The position numbers and the translations under genes were made by a program. Shown here piece after piece: positions 7,124-56,963 of a stretch of DNA of 56,963 bases. The notes below the pieces were generated by a model. It was not told where the DNA came from and ran no database searches. It was given only the letters and a program-made list of their open reading frames with translations. The stretch comes from Pseudomonadota bacterium (GTDB taxonomy: Bacteria > Pseudomonadota > Gammaproteobacteria > Burkholderiales > JABEVD01): assembly GCA_021845885.1 (NCBI GenBank), contig JAJZVB010000001.1, positions 1 to 56,963 on the forward strand. Reading direction: 5' to 3'. Every line of letters begins with the position of its first letter. The first letter of the stretch is position 1.

Positions 7124-8061
7124 ATCCAGAAAGGGTCCGGATCCCGGACATGTCCTTCAAGGATGAACCTGAAATGGTCGGGGTCCTTGGCATGGGTCAG
7201 CTCCCCGGGTCTCGGCAGGTAATAGTCGTATAGCCTGGAGACCCAGAAGCGCAGGGAGGCCCTGCGCAGGACGACGGGCCATGCCTCCTTTTCGCTCCCG
7301 GTGAGCGGGCGGATGGCATGGTAGGCCGAAAGCAGGGCGATCGTCCTTTCCCCGTCCAGGCGCTTCGAGGAATCGACGCACCAGTCGTTGACCGTGATGG
7401 CGAGGTCGAGGAGCAGCCAGTCGTTGCAGGCGAAGTAGAAATCGATCAGGCCGCCTATCGACTCGTTCTCGAAAAGCACGTTGTCCCTGAAAAGGTCGGC
7501 GTGGATCACCCCTTCGGGGAGATCTTTCAGTTCGCATCCGGACTGGAAGCGGATTTCGCTTTCCAGGAGCCTTCCTTCTTCCGTGCTGGTGTAGGGTAGA
7601 ATTTCCGGAAGGGCGCTTTGCCACCATTTTTCCCCCCTCGGATTTTCCATGCGTTCGGGAAAGCTTTCGCCTTCCAGATGCATCTTCGCCAGCATGGCCC
7701 CGATTTCTCTGCAATGATGCGCGTCCGGATGCTCGACGGATTTCCCCTTGAGGCGGGTGACGATGCTTGCGGGTTTCCCGTTCAATGCGCCGAGCAGCCT
7801 TTGTCCGTGGTCGGGAACGGGATTGGGGCAGGGAATCCCTCGGCTCGCGAGGTGAGCCATCAGGTCGAGGTAATAGGGAAGCTCTTTCGGCGTGAGCTTC
7901 TCGAAAAGGGTGAGGACATAACTTCCCCTTTCTGTCGTGACGAAATAATTGGTGTTTTCGATGCCCGAGGCGATGCCCTTCAGCTCGATCAATTTGCCCA
8001 GATCGAAATTTTCAAGCCAGACCGAGAGCTGTTCCGGCGTGACAGTCGTGAATACGGACAT
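7120..8061 (-). CDS. thrB: Homoserine kinase (ThrB, APH-fold type)
   Basis: MSVFTTVTPEQL...GIENTNYFVTTERGSYVLTLFE and HADLFRDNVLF are typical of the pseudomonad/betaproteobacterial ThrB. Confidence 0.85.
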   Translation of the reverse strand: MSVFTTVTPEQLSVWLENFDLGKLIELKGIASGIENTNYFVTTERGSYVLTLFEKLTPKELPYYLDLMAHLASRGIPCPNPVPDHGQRLLGALNGKPASIVTRLKGKSVEHPDAHHCREIGAMLAKMHLEGESFPERMENPRGEKWWQSALPEILPYTSTEEGRLLESEIRFQSGCELKDLPEGVIHADLFRDNVLFENESIGGLIDFYFACNDWLLLDLAITVNDWCVDSSKRLDGERTIALLSAYHAIRPLTGSEKEAWPVVLRRASLRFWVSRLYDYYLPRPGELTHAKDPDHFRFILEGHVRDPDPFWI

Positions 8062-8064
8062 CTT

Positions 8065-8394
8065 TCAGAAGTGGCCGATGACCCACATCGGAGGGCGGAC
8101 CATGGGGGTCTGGCGGACGAACTGGCCGTCCCCCTTCATGTCCACCAGATAATAGGGTACGCCGTGCTTGGGCGTGACCTTGATCATGTAGAGGTGGCCG
8201 TGGATGCGGTATTCCTCTATTTTCTGTTCGCCTTTCTGCTTGATCGTCACTTCAGGCTCGGTACCGTCCTTTGCCACGGTGGGCGGGGGAGGCACGTCGG
8301 GCAGGGGTTCCAGATTCTTGGGTTCGTCGGCTAGGGCATGTGACGAAAATAGGTAGAAGAGTGCGATGATTGCGTAACGCATGGTGTTTTCCAT
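8065..8394 (-). CDS. DUF2782-family secreted protein
   Basis: Signal peptide, then EPEVTIKQKGEQKIEEYRIHGHLYMIKVTPKHGVPYYLVD. It lies in the conserved position between polA and thrB. Confidence 0.7.
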   Translation of the reverse strand: MENTMRYAIIALFYLFSSHALADEPKNLEPLPDVPPPPTVAKDGTEPEVTIKQKGEQKIEEYRIHGHLYMIKVTPKHGVPYYLVDMKGDGQFVRQTPMVRPPMWVIGHF

Positions 8395-8429
8395 TTCATG
8401 GCCGACAGGCGGTATTTTATCTCAAAATT

Positions 8430-9146
8430 TCAAAGATTGAGCTGGATTTCGTGTTCCGCTTCGGATGGCGCGAAGCCGCGGGTTTCGTAGTGCCTGAATA
8501 TCGCGTCGACAACCGCTTCGGGTTCGTCGATGACCTGGATCAGATCGATGTCTTCGGGGCTGATCATGCCTTCCTTTACGAGCACTTCCTTCATCCAGTC
8601 GAGCATGCCTTTCCAGAATGGGGAATGCACAAGGATGATGGGGATTTTCCGGGTCTTTCCCGTCTGCACGAGCGTGAGCGCTTCCATGAGTTCATCCAGC
8701 GTGCCGAATCCGCCCGGCATCACGACATAGGCCGAAGCGAATTTCACGAACATCACCTTTCTGGCGAAGAAATGCCTGAAAGTCTGGCTGATGTCCTGGT
8801 ACTTGTTGCTGTGCTGCTCGTGGATTAGTTGGATGTTGAGGCCTATGCTGGCCGAAGGGCCGAAATAGGCGCCCTTGTTCGCCGCTTCCATGATGCCCGG
8901 GCCGCCTCCGGAAATGACGGCGAAGCCCGCATCGGAAAGCAGCCTTGCGATTTTTTCTGTAAGCTTGTAATACTCGTGCTCAGGGCTGGTCCTCGCGCTG
9001 CCGAACAGGCTGACTGCAGGATGGACCGCATTGAGGCGCTCGGTCGCCTCGAAGAATTCTGACATAATGCCGAAAATGCGCCAGGATTCGCGCGCCGACC
9101 AGGGTTTTTCTGATTTTTCCGCCGGGCGGAGAATTTTTTTGTTCAT
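8430..9146 (-). CDS. LOG-family (TIGR00730) nucleotide phosphoribohydrolase
   Basis: GGGPGIMEAANKGA and PGGFGTLDELMEALTLVQTGK motifs. Confidence 0.85.
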   Translation of the reverse strand: MNKKILRPAEKSEKPWSARESWRIFGIMSEFFEATERLNAVHPAVSLFGSARTSPEHEYYKLTEKIARLLSDAGFAVISGGGPGIMEAANKGAYFGPSASIGLNIQLIHEQHSNKYQDISQTFRHFFARKVMFVKFASAYVVMPGGFGTLDELMEALTLVQTGKTRKIPIILVHSPFWKGMLDWMKEVLVKEGMISPEDIDLIQVIDEPEAVVDAIFRHYETRGFAPSEAEHEIQLNL

Positions 9147-49252: not shown

Positions 49253-49831
49253 ATGTCGGCAAAATCGGGCGAAAGAAAGCTTCAAATCCTGCAAACCCTG
49301 GCGCAGATGCTGCAAATGCCGGGCGGGGAGAAAATCACCACGGCTTCCCTTGCCGCAAGGCTGGAAGTTTCAGAGGCTGCGCTTTACAGGCATTTCGCGA
49401 GCAAGGCGCAGATGTTCGAAGGATTGATCGAATTCATCGAGCAGACCCTTTTCGGCATCATCAACAAGATTTCTGCGGAAGACCAGAGCGGATTGAAGCA
49501 GGTCGAGGCCATGCTTTCCCTGCTCCTCGGATTTGCAAAAAAGAATCCGGGGATGACCCGGGTCCTGATCGGGGATGCGCTCGTCAACGAGAATGAGCGG
49601 CTCCAGGGCAGGATCAACCAGCTTCACGACAGGCTGGAAGCCACCCTCAAGCAATCCTTGCGCTTCGCCGCGAGCCAGGGGGAAATATCGGGAGATCTGG
49701 ACGAGGCGGTTCAGGCGAACCTCCTGATGTGCTTCATTGTCGGGCGATGGCACCAGTTCGCGAAAAGCGGATTCAGGCGGGACCCCTTGGCATCCTGGGC
49801 GCAGCAGTGGACGATGTTGTCGAAATTCTAG
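49253..49831 (+). CDS. slmA: Nucleoid occlusion factor SlmA (TetR fold)
   Basis: ILQTLAQMLQ...ITTASLAARLEVSEAALYRHFASKAQMFEGLIEFIE and RLQGRINQL closely parallel E. coli SlmA as I recall it. Confidence 0.88.
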   Translation: MSAKSGERKLQILQTLAQMLQMPGGEKITTASLAARLEVSEAALYRHFASKAQMFEGLIEFIEQTLFGIINKISAEDQSGLKQVEAMLSLLLGFAKKNPGMTRVLIGDALVNENERLQGRINQLHDRLEATLKQSLRFAASQGEISGDLDEAVQANLLMCFIVGRWHQFAKSGFRRDPLASWAQQWTMLSKF

Positions 49832-49953
49832 GAAACGCCGCAGGCCAACATGATCTTCTCCAGCGGGCCAAGAAAAGGGGATAATGTAAAGGCATGCGCC
49901 CGTCTTGCTCTTGGGTTCGGCAACTACAATTGCGATATCGCTAACAGGCCTCG

Positions 49954-51114
49954 ATGATGCATATGTTTAAAGAATTCCTTGATGCTCGTGCCGATGGTTT
50001 CCCAGGACCGGCCTTTGGGAGCGAGACTGATTTTTGGGATCAAGTTGTCCACTCCATACGCGAGGAATACTTGTCCGAAGTCCAGGATTACCCCTGGATT
50101 ATCGGTTTTTCTGGCGGCAAGGATTCGACCGTTGTTGCCCAGGCCGTTTTCGAGGCCTTGCTGCAGATCCCGCCATCCCGGCGAAAGCGACATGTCCATT
50201 TGGTATCCAACGATACTCAGGTAGAAAGCCCGCTGGTCATGGCGCACCTCATCAAAGTGCAAGCTGCGATTGCCAGCATGGCTGAAAGCTTTCGTATGCC
50301 TGTCACGGTCGTGACGACCCGTCCGGCTCCAGATAAAACTTTCTGGGCGCTGTTGATTGGCAAGGGCTACCCCAGCCCGAACCAGACGATGCGCTGGTGT
50401 ACCGATCGCCTGAAAATTCTGCCGACCAGCCGATACATTTTGGACAACGTATCCGCCCATGGCGCGGCCATCGTGGTACTGGGCGTGCGCCTTGACGAAA
50501 GCGACAGTCGACGCAACTCCATCAACAAGTTTCGAAATCTCGCTGGGTCGGACCTCACGCCGCACAGCGAGTTGCCGGGGGCGTTCATTTATCGCCCAAT
50601 CGTTCATCTCACGGTGGACGACGTTTGGGAAGTACTGGGCCGTTGCCAGCCCCCATGGGGAGGAACGCATCGAGACCTGATTCAGTTGTACCGGGATGCC
50701 GAAGGGGGCGAATGCCCAGTAGTGTTGAGCAAGGATGAGGCACCGGGGTGCGGCACGTCCAATAGCCGGTTCGGATGCTGGACGTGCACCGTGGTCGACA
50801 AGGATAAAAGCATTCAGGGATTCATCGATGTCGGCAATCACCACTTCAAAGCCCTGGTGGACTTCCGGGACTGGCTCAAAGAAATTCGCAACAAGCCTGA
50901 ATACAGGCAGGTGGAACGCAGAAATGGCCGGACCCAATTTGATCTTGTTACCGGCAAGCATATTCCAGGGCCTTTCACCATTCAGGCGCGCAAGATGATC
51001 CTTGACCGTCTGCGGGAAACGGAGGAAGAGTTTGGCGGCCAACTTATCAGCAAGGAAGAGATAGACATCATCGAGTCGACATGGGCCGACGAACTGGTTC
51101 AGAAGGGGGAATAG
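49954..51114 (+). CDS. DndC-like PAPS-reductase/PP-loop, Fe-S sulfurtransferase-type protein (short form)
   Basis: PP-loop IIGFSGGKDSTVV, then RWCTDRLKILP and the Cys cluster GCGTSNSRFGCWTCTVVDKDKS typical of DndC. At 386 aa it is shorter than canonical DndC. Confidence 0.85.
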   Translation: MMHMFKEFLDARADGFPGPAFGSETDFWDQVVHSIREEYLSEVQDYPWIIGFSGGKDSTVVAQAVFEALLQIPPSRRKRHVHLVSNDTQVESPLVMAHLIKVQAAIASMAESFRMPVTVVTTRPAPDKTFWALLIGKGYPSPNQTMRWCTDRLKILPTSRYILDNVSAHGAAIVVLGVRLDESDSRRNSINKFRNLAGSDLTPHSELPGAFIYRPIVHLTVDDVWEVLGRCQPPWGGTHRDLIQLYRDAEGGECPVVLSKDEAPGCGTSNSRFGCWTCTVVDKDKSIQGFIDVGNHHFKALVDFRDWLKEIRNKPEYRQVERRNGRTQFDLVTGKHIPGPFTIQARKMILDRLRETEEEFGGQLISKEEIDIIESTWADELVQKGE

Positions 51115-51118
51115 GATA

Positions 51119-51319
51119 ATGCCAGAAGTGTATTTGGGTGATCTGCCGCTATGGTCGGACAACGAAGCCAGAGACGTAATGGAGAAATTGTGTCAAAAAC
51201 ATAATGTTCCTGTGGATGTGTTCACAGAGCTTGTGGCAATTCAACGCCATAACCAAGACAGAAGCAAGGCGTTTGGTATTTATGACGCCATCAGCGAAGC
51301 CTTGAGCCGGATGGATTGA
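51119..51319 (+). CDS. 66-aa ORF resembling the detached C-terminal tail of DndC
   Basis: It starts 4 nt after the DndC-like stop, in a different frame. ...ARDVMEKLCQKHNVPVDVFTELVAIQRHNQDRSKAFGIYDAISEAL recalls the helical C-terminal segment of full-length DndC. That comparison is from memory only. Confidence 0.45.
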   Translation: MPEVYLGDLPLWSDNEARDVMEKLCQKHNVPVDVFTELVAIQRHNQDRSKAFGIYDAISEALSRMD

Positions 51320-51328
51320 AAGAAATTT

Positions 51329-53377
51329 ATGTGGATTTCCCGGCTTGAACTCATCAATTTCAAAAGCTACCAACATCAGGTTTTTGAGTTTCCTTCCCCC
51401 AGTCAAGGCAAGAACATCATTCTCATAGGTGGGATGAATGGCTACGGTAAAACGACCATTCTGGAAGCTCTCTATCTTGGGCTCTATGGTAAAGACTCCA
51501 TCATCCACCTTGCCCGCGCTGGCATCAAAGGTGACGTGGGCTACCCGGTTTTTCTTGAGCGTGCCTTGCACGGTCATGCATTAAAAACCAAACGCGATAC
51601 CATGAGTGTATTGGTGCAAATCAATACCAACGAGCATGAAGGCTTTCAGGTCACTCGCAAGTGGTTTTTTTCACCCAAAGGCGATTGGAGAGATGAAGAA
51701 ATTCTGATCTACGATATCCGTGATGGCATTCGTACCCAAACTCGCAATGCCGATCAGATTGAAGAAATATTGGATCAATATTTTGTTCCTGCCCATTTGG
51801 CACCATTCTTCTTCTTTGATGGTGAAGAAGTGAAACGTTTGGCCGACCATAACCGTGTTGAGCAAATCAAAATGGGCATGGAAGGTTTGCTTGGCGTGGT
51901 TCTGCTCCGCAAATTAGAAACCAGGTTGCAGCAGTATCAGGCTAACAAGAGCCAGGGTGTACCAAAAGTCGATGAAGAAAAACACCGTCAATTGTTGGAG
52001 GAACTTACTCAGCACGAGCAACTGCTGGAAGAATCGCAACAGAGGAAAATGAAGACTCATGAGGAACTGGATGTACTCAAAACCGAACGTAGTAATTTGA
52101 TGCACCGTATCATGGCACTTGGGGGTGGTGGCGGCGATATTGCAAATGCTCGAGACATCGTTGAGGAATTGACCCGCGCGGAAATTGACCTGAAAGAATG
52201 CCAGGACGATGTGGAGCAGGTATTGGGGTCCAGTCTTTCATTCCACTTGATTTCACGGGAAATTCGTAACGCTTATGTGAATCAGCTGAAGGCTGAAGAA
52301 GAACGTATTAAGTGGGACACCCGCAAGCACAGCCTGGAACCGGATAAAGAGAAATTTGTTTCGCGTTTTTTCGCGGATGATGCGCCAGCGTTTAATCCTG
52401 ACCTTACTAGCGAGCAGCACACGACGATTACACACCGCCTAGAAACTGCATGGGAAAGCCTGTTTTATCCTTTACCAGATGGCTGTGCGGAAGAAATCAT
52501 CCACGATTATGTCCATGGCGCGAAACGCCAGCAGGTTATTGGCATGATGGAAAATTTAAGCATCGGTGCTCAGGACATACTTGGCCTTCTGGAACGGCGG
52601 GATAACCTCCATGAGAAGATTCGCAACCTTCGCAACCGTCTGGCCAAGATTGAGGGGATTGACCGAGATGGAACATTGGCCGGACTCAATACCGAAATGA
52701 GTACCATACATGTCAAAATTGACCAGAAGCAGCACGAACTAGGGGCAATCGAGAAGCATGTTTCCTCACTTCAAATCAACATCAACAACGAACGTGCCAA
52801 CTATCAGCGCGAACATGAGAAGTTTCTGAAAGCAAATCCGGTAAAATCGGATGTTGCTCGTGCAGATAGGGTATGCAAATTGATTGAGGAACTGGTTCCC
52901 AGCCTTTATGCGCTCAAGACAAACCGCTTAGCCTATGCCATGACTAACGTTTTCCAGCAACTATCACATAAGAAGCAGGTGGCGCGAATTGAAATTGATG
53001 AAACAGGGAAATCCCGTCTCATTAGCTTTGAAGGCGACGAAATTACATTTGATAAATCTGCTGGTGAAGACCAGTTATTTGCCACTTCGCTGCTAGCAGG
53101 GCTGGCCGAAATCTCCGGTATTAAGGCACCCTTGGTGGTTGATACGCCGTTGGCACGCCTGGACAGCAATCACCGCAAAAACATCTTGAATTACTGGGTT
53201 TCTGATAAGAGTCGACAAGTATTTCTGTTGAGCCAGGATAAGGAAATTGACGCGCAAGTTTACAATGAGCTACAGGACAGCATTGCGCAGTCATACCTGC
53301 TTCAACACCAGCAAATCGGTAATGGCGTGGGTATGACAGTAGCCACCAAGAACGCCTACTTTGGAGGCCAGCGATGA
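51329..53377 (+). CDS. DndD-like SMC/ABC-type ATPase
   Basis: N-terminus MWISRLELINFKSYQ...LIGGMNGYGKTTILEALYLGLYG, a long coiled-coil middle, and a C-terminus KSAGEDQLFATSLLAGLAEISG...LVVDTPLARLDSNHR...VFLLSQDKEI. This is the DndD family layout. Confidence 0.85.
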   Translation: MWISRLELINFKSYQHQVFEFPSPSQGKNIILIGGMNGYGKTTILEALYLGLYGKDSIIHLARAGIKGDVGYPVFLERALHGHALKTKRDTMSVLVQINTNEHEGFQVTRKWFFSPKGDWRDEEILIYDIRDGIRTQTRNADQIEEILDQYFVPAHLAPFFFFDGEEVKRLADHNRVEQIKMGMEGLLGVVLLRKLETRLQQYQANKSQGVPKVDEEKHRQLLEELTQHEQLLEESQQRKMKTHEELDVLKTERSNLMHRIMALGGGGGDIANARDIVEELTRAEIDLKECQDDVEQVLGSSLSFHLISREIRNAYVNQLKAEEERIKWDTRKHSLEPDKEKFVSRFFADDAPAFNPDLTSEQHTTITHRLETAWESLFYPLPDGCAEEIIHDYVHGAKRQQVIGMMENLSIGAQDILGLLERRDNLHEKIRNLRNRLAKIEGIDRDGTLAGLNTEMSTIHVKIDQKQHELGAIEKHVSSLQININNERANYQREHEKFLKANPVKSDVARADRVCKLIEELVPSLYALKTNRLAYAMTNVFQQLSHKKQVARIEIDETGKSRLISFEGDEITFDKSAGEDQLFATSLLAGLAEISGIKAPLVVDTPLARLDSNHRKNILNYWVSDKSRQVFLLSQDKEIDAQVYNELQDSIAQSYLLQHQQIGNGVGMTVATKNAYFGGQR

Positions 53378-54906
53378 GTGATATCAGTTTGGAAAATGTG
53401 CTGGTCTCCAATTTCCAGACCAGTGCTGAAGCTGACAAAATTACCGAAATGCTAAAAGGAAAGTTGGGTCTTTCCGTGCGATATCGTGTCGCTCGTCTTG
53501 CCATTGGCCGCTCGCTGGGCGAACCAAATTTCCCTACGCAAAATGCGGATGCCCAAGGGAAAACTATCAAGGGTGATTTGCTGTTCGGATTGGATGAATA
53601 TCCATTGTGGGTGGGGTTACTCATCACTAACATCAAGAACCACATCCCAAAAGCGGAGCTTACGATTGCAACTTTACAAAATGCGGTCAGGCGACATTGG
53701 CAGCGGGGCATCATGCTTTTGCTGGATGACTGGAACGAAGCGGGCGAAGATCCTCGAAAGTTTTGGGAAATATTGATTCATCGCCGGGCCATGCTGCCCG
53801 ATACTGTTTCCAGGCCGGACAAGTTTGGTGAGGTACATCGTGGTGAAGAGATGGGATTCACTGGGACAGCCAAGGCTATCCATGTCGAGTTGGGGAAGGG
53901 GATGGATGCCCCATACGAACAGTACATACGTCTGGTGAATGGTGTGGGTACTTCACCGCATATGGCAATTATGGGGCAGTCCGGCTCTGGTAAGACCCGT
54001 ATCATGAAAGAGGTATTGAAGCAGATCCATATACAAACTACTGCACCAGTAATTTTGCTGGACCTGGGTAAGGGTGACTTGGCCAACGATACGGCATTGA
54101 TTGACACATTGGGAGCGAAAATCCTGCGTGTTCCCGAGGACGGTATTCCGTTGGATATGTTTTACGGCTCCAAGCAAAATGATGAGGTAGCTACTGACAC
54201 AGTGATGAGCTTTCGTGACTCCTTCTCTAATGTGGTGCAAGGTAAGCTGGGACCGAAACAACTGGACAATCTACGGGAAGCCCTAAAGCCGCTGTTTTCA
54301 ACCCAAGAAAAAATAACGCTGGAAGATGTGCGCTCGTGGCTTGACCAGTTCTATGAAGAGAATGACTTGAAGATGGACAGCGTAATGTCCACCATCAACG
54401 ATCTGACGCAATATACGATTTTTAGGCCAGACTATTCACCCCTGCAATTTTTCTCACAAAGTTGGATTATCACTTTTGCCCATGCTCACGACACCATCAA
54501 AAATCTGGCGGTTTTCTTGCTGATGGATGCGTTAAACACATACATGAAGCGCTTACCAGAGGCACCACAAGACAGTGAAGGGCATCGCGCAATCCGTCTG
54601 GTTCTCGCTGTGGATGAAGCACGCCACCTGTTGTCATCCAGGCATGACGCCTTGAGCGACAATATCCGCCTGCATCGCTCCAAGGGCTTGGTGGTTACCC
54701 TTGCTTCGCAAAGTCCCGATGACTACGATGGCAAGAGCGATGATTATATGGAAAACATTGGATTGCCTATCTGTTTCAACACGAACGCTGTGGCTACAAA
54801 AGTGCTCCAGAACATGTTTCGGGGCAGGGTGAGCTTTTCCTCTCTCCCGCCTGGCGTATTCATGACTGTGAAGGATTCGAAGCCTATAAAGGTAAAGGCT
54901 TTTTAG
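53374..54906 (+). CDS. Fusion protein: DndE-like N-terminal domain + HerA/FtsK (DUF87)-type P-loop ATPase
   Basis: ATGA overlap with the DndD-like gene. Residues ~10-135 (FQTSAEADKITEMLKGKLGLSVRYRVARLAIGRSL...GDLLFG...AVRRHWQRGIMLL) follow the DndE pattern as I recall it. These are followed by Walker A IMGQSGSGKTR and Walker B RLVLAVDEARHLL. Confidence 0.65.
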   Translation: MSDISLENVLVSNFQTSAEADKITEMLKGKLGLSVRYRVARLAIGRSLGEPNFPTQNADAQGKTIKGDLLFGLDEYPLWVGLLITNIKNHIPKAELTIATLQNAVRRHWQRGIMLLLDDWNEAGEDPRKFWEILIHRRAMLPDTVSRPDKFGEVHRGEEMGFTGTAKAIHVELGKGMDAPYEQYIRLVNGVGTSPHMAIMGQSGSGKTRIMKEVLKQIHIQTTAPVILLDLGKGDLANDTALIDTLGAKILRVPEDGIPLDMFYGSKQNDEVATDTVMSFRDSFSNVVQGKLGPKQLDNLREALKPLFSTQEKITLEDVRSWLDQFYEENDLKMDSVMSTINDLTQYTIFRPDYSPLQFFSQSWIITFAHAHDTIKNLAVFLLMDALNTYMKRLPEAPQDSEGHRAIRLVLAVDEARHLLSSRHDALSDNIRLHRSKGLVVTLASQSPDDYDGKSDDYMENIGLPICFNTNAVATKVLQNMFRGRVSFSSLPPGVFMTVKDSKPIKVKAF

Positions 54907-54916
54907 GGGAGGCGCA

Positions 54917-55423
54917 ATGACAAAGGAGGTACCTTTAGAAGAAAATGAAATTAAAAAAACTCCCATGACTCCAAGTTGGATCGCTTTCTGGACAGCCTTA
55001 ATTTATGCTTTTGGGGTACTCATATTAGGCGGTGGCGCAGGCATTTGGCTACCTGCTGTTATGCCGACTAAATCCGTTGGGATCGATGCATTAACTACTT
55101 TTTCGATGGCTACCTTGACACCTATTTGCGTTGATTTGATGCTTGACTTAGATGTGTATGGCCGCAAGTTATCGAAGCTTTGGCGCGTTTCCCTTGTTGT
55201 TGGATGCATATTTGCTGGCACATTGGCAATAATTGCCCTTGTTCGGGAGAAGGCCGCTGGTGAGTGGTTGGCAGGAGTCTTCTCGGTGATCTTATCTGTG
55301 GTAATTTGGATTACTTTTGCGATGAAATCAGAACGGTTTCTACCTGATGGTTCCAAGACCGGTTCGATTGGTGGGGATAGGCCAGAAACCTCTAACTTGA
55401 ATGGCACTGGGTTACCCGCATGA
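54917..55423 (+). CDS. Small integral membrane protein (~4 TM helices)
   Basis: Hydrophobic segments WIAFWTALIYAFGVLILGGGAGIWL, LTTFSMATLTPICVDLML, VSLVVGCIFAGTLAIIALV and LAGVFSVILSVVIWITFA. A 4-nt overlap joins it to the next gene. Confidence 0.65.
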   Translation: MTKEVPLEENEIKKTPMTPSWIAFWTALIYAFGVLILGGGAGIWLPAVMPTKSVGIDALTTFSMATLTPICVDLMLDLDVYGRKLSKLWRVSLVVGCIFAGTLAIIALVREKAAGEWLAGVFSVILSVVIWITFAMKSERFLPDGSKTGSIGGDRPETSNLNGTGLPA

Positions 55424-56652
55424 GCGAATATCCACAGATATTGGGTGTTAATCGTCCGGCCATTAGAGTCGTTCAACCTTTGGGAACATTCTACGCATTT
55501 TCACTAGGCGCAGATGTTTTGAATAGAATCACGTATTCTCAGCCCGCCGAAGTTATGGAGCGCATGGAGCGTGAAACGGACGATAGTAAAGGTGGGTACT
55601 CTATTTTTGGCACGCAGCGCCTTGAAAATAAGAAGCGCTTAGATGAAATTGCATCTTTTATTCGCACAACTGAAGCGACATTTCCCAATGCCATTATTCT
55701 GGCGGCCAATTATGACCAAAACGGCCAATATATTTTAGAGGAAAACACGGACCGTAGGTGGAAAGTCGACGGTCTTCCAGATGGCCCATGGACTTTGCAT
55801 ATACCCTCACTCACAGAACGATCAGCATCTATTATCGATGGCCAGCATCGGTTGCATGCATTCGATAAGCTACCCATAGATGCCCCAGAGCGGGCGATGG
55901 AATTGTTGTGCGTTGTTTTTCTTGAACTCCCAACACCTTACCATGCTTATGTTTTTGCAACTATCAATTTTAACCAGAAGAAGGTAGATCGTAGTCTGGC
56001 CTACGAGCTATTTGGGTTTGATGTGGATGAGCGTCCTCCTCGCTTTTGGTCTCCGGAGACATTAGCTGTTTATTTGACAAGATTAATGAACACAGAAAAA
56101 GAATCGCCACTGTTTCGTTCGATCTTTCCTGCAGCAGATTCCGACAAGCTGTTTCCTAATACCGATGAGCAAGCAAACGAGGACGTGCGTGTCTCCATGG
56201 CAACGATTGTGGATGGTATTTTGAGACTGATCTCAAAGAATCCAAAAGAAGACCGAAACCTCGTCCGTCGACCGGAAAACAAAGCGCTTGGTCGGGAGAG
56301 TCTTGCTCCGATTAACGGTGTACCGTTACGTGTGCTGTATATTCAAAGTAATGACAAAGCCATTTATGATCTGCTTTGCAATTTCTTCTCAGCCGTTCGA
56401 TCTAAAATTTGGGCCACTGCCGGAAAGGGCTCCTACTTACGTAAAACCGTAGGCATTCAGGCGCTATTCGATGTATTGCGTGAGCTTCTGGTATCGATGC
56501 CGATTACTGCTACCAATTTTTCTTATGACAATTTGGGAAAGATCCTAGAACCGTGCTCTGATTTGGATCCGGAGGGAGATAAGTACGAAGCATCCGGTAT
56601 TGGTAAAAGTGAGATCAAGCGCGATTTGTTGCGCGCCCTTGGTAAGGGCTGA
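55420..56652 (+). CDS. DGQHR-domain protein (DndB-like, ParB/Srx-fold family)
   Basis: Exact motif SIIDGQHRLHAF, preceded by GTQRLENKKRLDEIASFI and FPNAIILA and followed by FATINFNQKKV. This is the DGQHR/DndB-type signature order. Confidence 0.85.
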   Translation: MSEYPQILGVNRPAIRVVQPLGTFYAFSLGADVLNRITYSQPAEVMERMERETDDSKGGYSIFGTQRLENKKRLDEIASFIRTTEATFPNAIILAANYDQNGQYILEENTDRRWKVDGLPDGPWTLHIPSLTERSASIIDGQHRLHAFDKLPIDAPERAMELLCVVFLELPTPYHAYVFATINFNQKKVDRSLAYELFGFDVDERPPRFWSPETLAVYLTRLMNTEKESPLFRSIFPAADSDKLFPNTDEQANEDVRVSMATIVDGILRLISKNPKEDRNLVRRPENKALGRESLAPINGVPLRVLYIQSNDKAIYDLLCNFFSAVRSKIWATAGKGSYLRKTVGIQALFDVLRELLVSMPITATNFSYDNLGKILEPCSDLDPEGDKYEASGIGKSEIKRDLLRALGKG

Positions 56653-56734: not shown

Positions 56735-56963
56735 TCAACTCAACATCTCCATCAACACCGGATGCCATTTGGAAAGCTCGATCTCACCCATCTTTCCAGC
56801 CAGGCGACGTTTATCCACAGAGCGAAGTTGATCGAGCAAAATGCGCGCTGGTTTACCCGCAAACATGACCTCCGGGCGACTACCCAAAGGCTGTCCCTGG
56901 CTGGTCAGCGGCGCTATGATGACACGCGGCAGCGCAGCATTCAGGTCATCTGGCGAAACCACC
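56735..56963 (-). CDS. MazF/PemK-family type II toxin (N-terminus beyond the right edge of the window)
   Basis: ...VIIAPLTSQGQPLGSRPEVMFAGKPARILLDQLRSVDKRRL is the characteristic PemK/MazF C-terminal core. The frame is open to the end of the window. Confidence 0.7.
   Translation of the reverse strand, partial: VVSPDDLNAALPRVIIAPLTSQGQPLGSRPEVMFAGKPARILLDQLRSVDKRRLAGKMGEIELSKWHPVLMEMLS

Follow-up and report, generated by a model that had tools for sequence, protein, structure and literature searches.

The window (the whole stretch of 56,963 nt that was analyzed) contains a DNA phosphorothioation (PT) operon, dndC-Sp-dndD-dndE/HerA, whose last two genes code for a membrane protein and a DGQHR protein; all the features described here lie on the forward strand. 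The upstream genes of the same operon (positions 49,954 to 54,906), assigned from their ORFs, Pfam, NCBIfam, and PADLOC matches, and synteny, are a dndC-like gene (49,954 to 51,114), the gene of the 66-aa Sp-DndD (51,119 to 51,319), a dndD-like ABC ATPase gene (51,329 to 53,377), and a DndE-HerA/FtsK fusion gene (53,374 to 54,906), with intergenic gaps or overlaps of at most 10 nt. Comparable synteny was found in eight other loci (L001, L004, L042, L048, and L051 to L054). Apart from the DGQHR protein, no DndB was identified in the operon with Pfam, NCBIfam, and PADLOC, and neither were restriction genes. Promoter and terminator scans gave signals at or below chance, and dndC was the sole operon gene mapped by metatranscriptome contigs of the same study, which are hence uninformative on the pair. 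The membrane-protein gene (54,917 to 55,423, an ORF of 168 aa) codes for a four-helix inner-membrane protein of an unnamed family, and a Shine-Dalgarno-like GGGGAGG could be read from the sequence at 54,906 to 54,912, with the ATG 4 nt downstream. The DGQHR gene (55,420 to 56,652, 410 aa) starts within its end, as the TGA of the former and the ATG of the latter overlap in an ATGA (55,420 to 55,423), an arrangement that implies translational coupling of both genes. The earlier note had described a 168-aa protein with about four helices overlapping by 4 nt a 410-aa DGQHR ORF, and we recovered both ORFs, the ATGA, and the motif exactly as described.

The 410-aa protein matches TIGR04172, the NCBIfam profile of "DNA phosphorothioation-associated DGQHR protein 1," with 483 bits (cutoff, 450), its residues 13 to 408 covering model positions 2 to 381 of 381, and the DGQHR domain profile TIGR03187 with 209 bits. 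The match to Pfam DndB amounts to 34.7 bits and is limited to residues 13 to 195 and to positions 2 to 160 of the 338 of the model. These profiles make the protein a TIGR04172 member over its full length, not a long DndB. Its homologs form 1,486 clusters, many of which carry the same name, DGQHR protein 1. The N-terminal ParB/Srx-like DGQHR domain (about residues 10 to 195, positions 55,447 to 56,004) was delimited with hhalign, the Pfam DndB match, and the invariant columns. The DGQHR motif itself (residues 140 to 144, positions 55,837 to 55,851) is invariant from D140 to R144 among 18 diverse members, as are Q66-R67 and N183-F-N-Q-K187, together with many polar residues across both domains. 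Alignment with hhalign to the DndB proteins of related loci gave a probability of 92.6% (E = 4.5e-7) over residues 3 to 194 only, so a ParB-like fold can be predicted through the sequence-level link provided by DndB and TIGR03187. Foldseek searches of the AlphaFold2 (AF2) model against PDB returned only noise (Spo0J with an E value of 4 and DndI, 9jfl_B, with 0.54), and neither a sequence search of PDB nor a profile search with this protein gave a match.

The C-terminal half appears to be an all-helical, family-specific domain in the AF2 model (about residues 205 to 410, positions 56,032 to 56,649), with a pLDDT of 82 to 95 over residues 260 to 410 and a variable patch at about nt 56,430 to 56,560. 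It does not align to the C-terminal half of DndB and has no significant fold or sequence match in PDB. The extra C-terminal stretch of about 150 aa that had been attributed to this protein in comparison with DndB turned out to be an error, as the DndB proteins of related loci measure about 366 aa and the 381 positions of TIGR04172 are covered end to end; in sequence terms, the domain is different from that of DndB in kind, not in presence. No nuclease or other effector domain was recognized in the DGQHR protein with Pfam, NCBIfam, or PADLOC, and a scan of viral contigs found no relatives. Its identification as DpdB, of the 7-deazaguanine system, could be ruled out, as the score against the DpdB equivalog NF041060 is far below the cutoff (76 versus 300 bits) and involves only the N-terminal part.

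For the 168-aa protein, AF2 predicts helices at residues 19 to 48, 58 to 80, 87 to 109, and 117 to 138, followed by a disordered tail of 30 aa (residues 139 to 168, positions 55,331 to 55,420), and a hydropathy scan matches these helices, the second one (TM2) being weakly hydrophobic in the allele of the window. The predicted topology is N-in/C-in, so the tail would be cytoplasmic. Conservation and charge distribution were derived from 60 diverse members, among which the conserved positions are Y30, a GGxGxWxP stretch in TM1 (residues 39 to 46), T61-Y62-x-x-A65, an intramembrane acidic residue in TM2 (D73, with D or E in 58 of the 60), W131 in TM4, and G152-G153 in the tail. A terminal GxGL is probably not a protein motif but a by-product of the ribosome-binding region of the DGQHR gene, with which its codons overlap, while G152-G153 is too far upstream for such an explanation. 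The family comprises 177 representative clusters, all of them standalone proteins of 46 to 238 aa, and an exhaustive profile search was required to retrieve them, as word-indexed protein searches find few relatives; the metagenome scan worked with an alignment of 10 sequences, the full alignment of 19 being too divergent. None of the families in Pfam, NCBIfam, or PADLOC could be assigned to this protein, for which PADLOC gave a weak match to a "2TM effector" (E = 0.0068), and Foldseek found nothing significant in PDB for its AF2 model. The E. coli partner is named AgrB in PGAP/RefSeq, which we reject as a threshold artifact: the Pfam AgrB match scores 24.0 bits (cutoff, 23) over positions 80 to 182 of the 185 of the model, the catalytic N-terminal half being required, and none of nine other members matches at an E value of ≤1. 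Where E. coli strains carry an allele that differs slightly, the label of this gene is "hypothetical protein."

The association of both genes goes well beyond chance. The earlier note had asked whether the membrane ORF persists beside DGQHR genes, and this attempt at refutation failed in both directions: all 18 genome loci that could be assessed, from at least seven phyla or classes, have the ORF, whose product measures about 165 aa, immediately before the DGQHR gene, and all 18 metagenome loci seeded with the TM protein, counting those with room downstream, have a DGQHR gene after the membrane gene. A 4-nt NTGA overlap is present in 30 of the 35 loci scored and also in two RefSeq plasmids, and, as a negative control, none of 16 loci with other DGQHR families had a four-helix partner. 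Both genes are under purifying selection, with dN/dS values of 0.04 to 0.19 for the TM gene and 0.06 to 0.10 for the DGQHR gene. These values and the identity profiles led us to replace the idea of a steadily fast-evolving TM protein by that of an allele-block replacement. The swapped block starts exactly at the start of the TM gene, as expected of a specificity or contact component. Covariation of the DGQHR N terminus with the TM type was also tested and had no clear support.

The genomic contexts of the pair are diverse. It is placed after dndE-HerA/FtsK, as in the window, after dptFGH (L014 and E. coli 55989), after dptFGH and an HNH nuclease (L015, L017, and L021), after pbeA/C/D (L013), after dndA (L016), or after dndC (L018), or it is found alone (L012 and L059). 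Stand-alone convergent copies on plasmids adjoin either a module of the Pbe type or an operon with DndC-Sp-DndD-DndE/FtsK. The relatives adjoin dnd, dpt, or pbe genes; the one exception may be L019, where the cassette lies on an 11.8-kb contig without recognizable dndC/D and downstream of a mad8-like gene with a HerA/FtsK domain. The pair is thus a conserved, obligate, and mobile two-gene cassette that passes as a whole from one PT context to another. A true DndB (522 to 552 bits in PADLOC) is also present in L013, L014, and E. coli, which means that the pair does not merely stand in for DndB, and its location is often within the restriction operon (dptFGH) and not the modification operon. In the position downstream of dptFGH, facing dndBCDE in convergent orientation, the pair fills the slot that belongs in Salmonella to dndI, which codes for a ParB-like PT-sensing ATPase/nickase (PMC11662687). 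The suggestion, made from the sequence of the window, that both genes form a submodule and not a canonical DndB regulator agrees well with such a linked unit, one that shifts between contexts, coexists with DndB, and is often part of the dptFGH operon.

Within E. coli, the pair was found in 125 of 5,426 genomes, and in the majority of the copies the TM gene is intact, whereas a premature stop interrupts the DGQHR gene. Strains such as NDM3 (NZ_CP083880.1) have an intact allele, together with dndBCDE and dptFGH. The membrane protein alone is therefore not lethal, nor can it be a constitutive toxin restrained by its DGQHR partner, and the module must be dispensable in these strains.

Taking all this into account, we propose that the pair is a self-contained, horizontally mobile accessory cassette of PT systems, coding for a membrane-bound, nucleotide-switched DNA-binding module that acts on the side of defense, a reading to which we give a probability of roughly 0.4. 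Both proteins would be made in a fixed proportion and would form a complex at the inner membrane, with the cytoplasmic tail or loop 2 of the membrane protein as the probable contact. The DGQHR domain may work as a nucleotide-switched DNA-binding module for reading DNA, or the PT status of DNA, in analogy to the ATP-modulated DNA binding of DndB and the PT-stimulated NTPase of DndI/SspE. The membrane protein would hold this reader at the inner membrane, the entry site of foreign DNA, and may also pass membrane perturbation on to it. The complex could then bind or mark unmodified incoming DNA, with an architecture like that of Kiwa and a genomic role like that of DndI, and would not be a DndB-type repressor of the modification genes. 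We favor this explanation because of the pairing, the overlap, the purifying selection, the varied PT contexts, the co-occurrence with DndB, and the dndI slot, and also because of the invariant residues in both domains, the cytoplasmic tail, the allele block, and the precedent of Kiwa. Several observations stand against it, such as the lack of an effector domain in the DGQHR protein, the lack of a significant structural neighbor for either AF2 model, the stops in the DGQHR gene of E. coli, the cassette of L019 without dndC/D, and the lack of clear covariation between the N terminus and the TM type.

Another point against a role in defense is that the type of operon present in the window has no DndB, so the DGQHR protein could do the regulatory job of DndB there. 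It would then be a DndB-like, ATP-modulated repressor of its own operon (dnd, dpt, or pbe), whose sequestration or release by the membrane protein would depend on envelope signals. As a transfer of function this is the most conservative option, since the N-terminal domain is homologous to that of DndB, a repressor of dndBCDE shown by experiment (PMC4507180), and the pair is found in cis with PT genes, with the possible exception of L019. Nevertheless, we consider it rather unlikely, as a true DndB co-occurs in many loci, its C-terminal half and that of the DGQHR protein are unrelated, and the DGQHR gene is located at the 3' end of the operon or is convergent, instead of promoter proximal. In addition, a simple repressor does not explain an obligate membrane partner or a cassette common to unrelated types of operons with different promoters.

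The architecture also recalls RexA, a DNA-binding sensor, and RexB, a 4-TM effector, and the pair is located in defense loci, so, in line with the effector idea of the earlier note, it could mediate a Rex-like abortive infection in which the DGQHR protein senses unmodified or foreign DNA, or a PT failure, and opens or oligomerizes the 4-TM protein, leading to depolarization and growth stop. The intramembrane acidic residue and the Gly-rich TM1 could line a pore, the weak "2TM effector" match goes in the same direction, and the E. coli copies with an intact TM gene and a broken DGQHR gene fit an effector that stays inactive until triggered. We regard this mechanism as unlikely, as the membrane protein is not homologous to RexB, KwaA, or other known membrane effectors, PT systems already hold nuclease effectors beside the pair (DptH, SBD-HNH, and PbeA), and without restriction genes in the window operon the trigger logic would be obscure. 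Last, a purely structural anchor, in which the pair would tether the PT machinery or the HerA/FtsK translocase (the DndE-HerA/FtsK fusion or DptH, both without TM) and the DNA to the membrane with no sensing, is very improbable, because, although most loci have a HerA/FtsK-domain gene just before the TM gene or with one gene in between (DndE-HerA/FtsK fusions, DptH, and the mad8-like gene of L019), there are exceptions (PbeD in L013, DndA in L016, DndC in L018, and the stand-alone L012 and L059), the association may just reflect a shared location at the 3' end of operons, and E. coli strains with a broken DGQHR gene can do without the module.

Returning to the membrane-bound reader of DNA, a broader version of it can be put forward tentatively, in which the pair is a hitherto unrecognized, self-contained membrane-coupled module of defense that reads PT status at the cell membrane and adds a further layer to Dnd, Dpt, Pbe, and MADS-like systems, where it might block incoming unmodified DNA or trigger a membrane-mediated growth arrest, its membrane component being available in exchangeable allelic types. 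PT defense has so far been explained via DndB for regulation and via DndFGH, DndI, SspE, and Pbe for restriction, and an obligate membrane partner points to a membrane-linked step that is missing from current models. TIGR04172 was defined in 2011 by ProPhylo as a "DPT satellite" always adjacent to dnd genes (PMC3226654) and has been catalogued since then without a function; neither a function nor an obligate membrane partner is reported in the description of the family and the literature that we searched, and the membrane partner is likewise absent from the most thorough of the recent comparative studies on Dnd systems. The family now becomes half of an obligate mobile cassette shared with a four-helix membrane protein, whose misleading RefSeq name in E. 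coli, "AgrB family," is hereby corrected. As E. coli holds both intact and naturally broken alleles, it offers a directly testable system.

Among the known systems is DndB (DptB), the ATP-modulated repressor of dndBCDE, with which the DGQHR protein shares a homologous N-terminal ParB/Srx-like DGQHR domain and the association with PT. However, their C-terminal halves cannot be aligned, the DGQHR protein has no match to DndB in PADLOC, unlike the true DndBs with their 522 to 552 bits, and DndB is the first gene of dndBCDE, whereas the DGQHR gene, together with that of its membrane partner, closes an operon at the 3' end or forms a unit of its own. DndI and SspE (DUF262 ParB-like NTPase plus HNH; PDB 9JFL and 7DRS) are ParB-superfamily proteins with NTP motifs that accompany PT genes, as the DGQHR protein may be, but the latter has DGQHR and not DGQQR, and its partner is a separate membrane protein and not a fused nuclease. 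An identification with DndI itself was rejected, as DndI is a protein of 656 aa with DUF262, HNH (DUF1524), and DGQQR and there is no sequence match; neither DUF262 nor HNH was found in the DGQHR protein with Pfam, NCBIfam, or PADLOC. RexAB of phage lambda and RexAB-type systems also combine a cytoplasmic DNA-binding sensor with a membrane protein that has four TM helices and about 150 aa, a likeness of architecture only, since no homology was detected and gene order and PT dependence differ. As for Kiwa, it is not linked to PT, the intracellular beta-barrel of KwaA is absent from the membrane protein, and we found no PADLOC Kiwa match for either protein, no DUF4868, and no significant Foldseek match in PDB, but it is also a two-gene module, in which the small four-helix KwaA is bound to the cytoplasmic DNA-binding KwaB that acts on the entering DNA.

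The pair of genes analyzed here closes a densely packed plus-strand operon (intergenic gaps or overlaps of ≤10 nt), which consists of a dndC-like gene (49954-51114), the 66-aa Sp-DndD (51119-51319), a dndD-like ABC ATPase (51329-53377), a DndE-HerA/FtsK fusion (53374-54906), a 168-aa membrane-protein ORF (54917-55423) and a 410-aa DGQHR-protein ORF (55420-56652), after which the operon stops. Upstream we found an SlmA-like TetR regulator and housekeeping genes, while downstream a PemK/MazF-like toxin ORF (56735-56962, minus strand; Pfam PF02452, E value of 1.6e-9) lies in convergent orientation to the operon and is truncated by the window end. The window originates from a mine-drainage metagenome, and its nearest relatives are Nitrosomonadales and Thiobacillus MAGs.

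The first genes of the operon have features of their own. dndC looks split (49954-51319), as the 386-aa ORF covers DndC models only to about position 364 to 375, and Sp-DndD (Pfam PF20306), which starts 4 nt downstream of it, aligns with the C-terminal end of these models (TIGR03183 396-445 of 447; PADLOC DndC 406-455 of 481). Since the split is also kept in related loci, the protein that Pfam terms the "small protein of Dnd systems" may represent a DndC tail that has become detached in the window's operon type. There is also a G+C step (49600-51400 versus 51200-56600), with dndC at ca. 0.56, the same as the flanking housekeeping genes, and the operon at 0.45 to 0.49 from Sp-DndD onward. In comparison with the related locus L001, dndC also shows the lowest conservation (77% amino acid identity versus 85 to 89% for the others), which together with the G+C step is suggestive of a mosaic origin. 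At 50008-50167 and 50700-50890, dndC has 100% identity matches among the metatranscriptome contigs of this mine-drainage study; these contigs cover dndC alone in the operon, and contig data of this kind cannot show absence elsewhere. The DndE fusion comes with two alternative C-terminal ATPases, the window type (510 aa, 53374-54906) and an FtsK-like type (513 aa, GGTTGSGKS; loci L003, L005-L007, L012, L043, and L045-L047), which have only the DndE domain (residues 1-147) in common; this agrees with HerA/FtsK capture, as proposed for Dnd systems in the literature.

The membrane/DGQHR pairing is obligate and robust. All 18 genome loci with enough upstream DNA carry an ORF of 155 to 208 aa, with three to five hydrophobic segments, that ends at the DGQHR start. 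The genome loci come from Beta-, Gamma-, and Deltaproteobacteria, Bacteroidia, Dehalococcoidia, Gemmatimonadota, Armatimonadota, and Victivallaceae, with DGQHR identities to the window of 31 to 82%. When metagenome loci were collected with the membrane protein as seed, the DGQHR gene came next in 18/18 with room downstream, so the conservation of this neighborhood, a point raised in the earlier note, holds from both sides. The 4-nt overlap described there is an ATGA in the window, and an NTGA overlap was present in 30 of the 35 loci scored (some of them near-duplicates) and in two RefSeq plasmids. No comparable membrane partner was found in 16 loci of other DGQHR families. Locus L022 (486-2770) encodes a 494-aa DGQHR protein of distant relationship (28% identity), which is abutted 5' by a 265-aa ORF with two hydrophobic segments, which may be an analogous partner in another family. 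As far as we could find, the pairing is undescribed; a membrane partner is absent from the broadest published comparison of Dnd systems, and within the searchable literature DGQHR is named in only eight papers.

The pair is a mobile cassette of phosphorothioate (PT) modification systems. In the window's clade it comes after DndE-HerA or DndE-FtsK fusions; elsewhere it lies 3' of dptF-G-H (L014 and Escherichia coli 55989), of dptFGH and an SBD-like HNH nuclease (L015, L017, and L021), of pbeA/C/D (L013), or of dndA or dndC (L016 and L018). There are also stand-alone copies, which lie convergent to dndBCDE, to a Pbe-type module carried by a conjugative Pontibrevibacter plasmid, or to a DndC-Sp-DndD-DndE/FtsK operon of a Rhizobium plasmid. 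The small gene between dptH and the membrane gene (L015, 8842-9288; L017, 8572-9432; L021, 8533-9441) aligns at its N terminus to a portion of the model for a type IV methyl-directed restriction enzyme and has a C-terminal HNH nuclease in L017 and L021, and it may code for a PT-reading nuclease. In L019 (429-8636), the cassette comes after a mad8/HerA-like ATPase and ahead of both a GHKL (HATPase_c_3) ATPase and a protein weakly matching radical SAM, on a contig where we recognized no dndC/D; the cassette may also serve non-Dnd (MADS-like) systems. A TniQ-like protein directly 5' of the L009 cassette (7369-9087) hints at carriage on a Tn7-like element. A scan of viral contigs found no relative of the DGQHR protein.

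The membrane gene is preceded by a GGGGAGG ribosome-binding site. The approximately four hydrophobic helices noted earlier correspond to four in the AlphaFold2 model built with 19 homologs (19-48, 58-80, 87-109, and 117-138), with a disordered tail after them; the basic character is strongest in loop 2, so an N-in/C-in topology is predicted. When 1.84 billion representative proteins were searched exhaustively with a profile, 177 clusters were recovered, all standalone proteins of 46 to 238 aa, and no member had a convincing family match in Pfam, NCBIfam, or PADLOC. Sixty diverse members conserve Y30, GGxGxWxP (TM1), T-Y-x-x-A (TM2), W131 (TM4), and GG 152-153 (tail), with an intramembrane D/E in TM2 in 58 of them. 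The codons of the terminal GxGL coincide with a GGAGG-like sequence 8 to 12 nt 5' of the DGQHR start, so this motif probably reflects the ribosome-binding site of the next gene. The RefSeq name of the E. coli homolog, "accessory gene regulator B family protein," is a mislabel: the match (24.0 bits; cutoff, 23) is limited to the C-terminal half of the AgrB model and missing in nine other members, and the label is absent from a slightly different E. coli allele.

The 410-aa protein, with the exact DGQHR motif of the earlier note at residues 140-144, belongs to NCBIfam TIGR04172, "DNA phosphorothioation-associated DGQHR protein 1," and matches its model over the full length (483 bits; cutoff, 450; model positions 2-381 of 381). 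This known, uncharacterized family was created in 2011 via phylogenetic profiling as a "DPT satellite" always beside dnd genes, and in Serratia it sits between dptE and dptH with a normal DptB also present (PMC3226654). In profile-profile alignment against canonical DndBs of the same loci, only residues 3-194 align (to DndB 4-172; probability, 92.6%), and the PADLOC DndB model, which scores genuine DndBs at 522 to 552 bits, gave no match; therefore, only the N-terminal DGQHR domain, ParB/Srx-like at the sequence level, is shared, and the C-terminal domain, all-helical and confidently modeled by AlphaFold2, is different. The "extra" C-terminal 150 aa claimed earlier is not an extension, because DndB has ca. 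366 aa. No solved structure was related by sequence or fold. DndI (DUF262 plus HNH, motif DGQQR) is unlike this protein, and DpdB was rejected at 76 bits (cutoff, 300).

In close pairs, dN/dS was 0.04 to 0.19 for the membrane gene and 0.06 to 0.10 for the DGQHR gene. Across the operon, L001 and L051 diverge from the window by only 10 to 20%, but over the membrane gene the divergence is 46 to 63%. DNA identity falls from 80 to 90% to 37 to 54% (54900-55800), sharply and exactly at the membrane gene start, and recovers gradually within the first 40 to 120 DGQHR codons. L040 shows no drop and carries the window's allele. Rather than uniform fast evolution, this looks like allele-block replacement with a recombination-like boundary, and exchangeable membrane-protein types thus exist in otherwise near-identical operons. 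The DGQHR N terminus did not clearly track the membrane type. A variable patch in the C-terminal domain (56430-56560, approximately residues 337-380) has 48 to 66% identity in all three close comparisons, L040 included.

The pair is present in 125 of 5,426 complete E. coli genomes. About three quarters of the sampled copies (23/30), such as that of strain 55989 (NC_011748.1, 4957121-4958800), have an in-frame stop at DGQHR codon 102 and an intact membrane gene; a few strains (NDM3, N2456, and CAVP814) keep DGQHR intact. Therefore, the membrane protein is not a constitutive toxin that its partner keeps in check, and this background can do without the module. RefSeq splits the 55989 DGQHR gene into "DndB" or "ParB N-terminal domain" and "DGQHR domain-containing protein."

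We place the pair with the ParB-like accessory proteins known from PT systems, and E. coli offers a clear way to study it experimentally. Judging from its anatomy, the four-helix protein and a nucleotide-switched, ParB-like DNA-binding protein would form a membrane-bound complex. Among the possible roles, an accessory defense-side module that surveys DNA at the membrane is the tentative reading that we rank first (probability of about 0.4). A membrane-controlled, DndB-like regulator comes second and seems unlikely; many cassette loci encode a genuine DndB. Marginally less likely is the Rex-like sensor/pore pair causing abortive infection that the earlier note proposed, and a passive anchor for HerA/FtsK translocases is improbable. 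The proposed DNA-surveying module would resemble Kiwa in architecture and DndI in genomic role.
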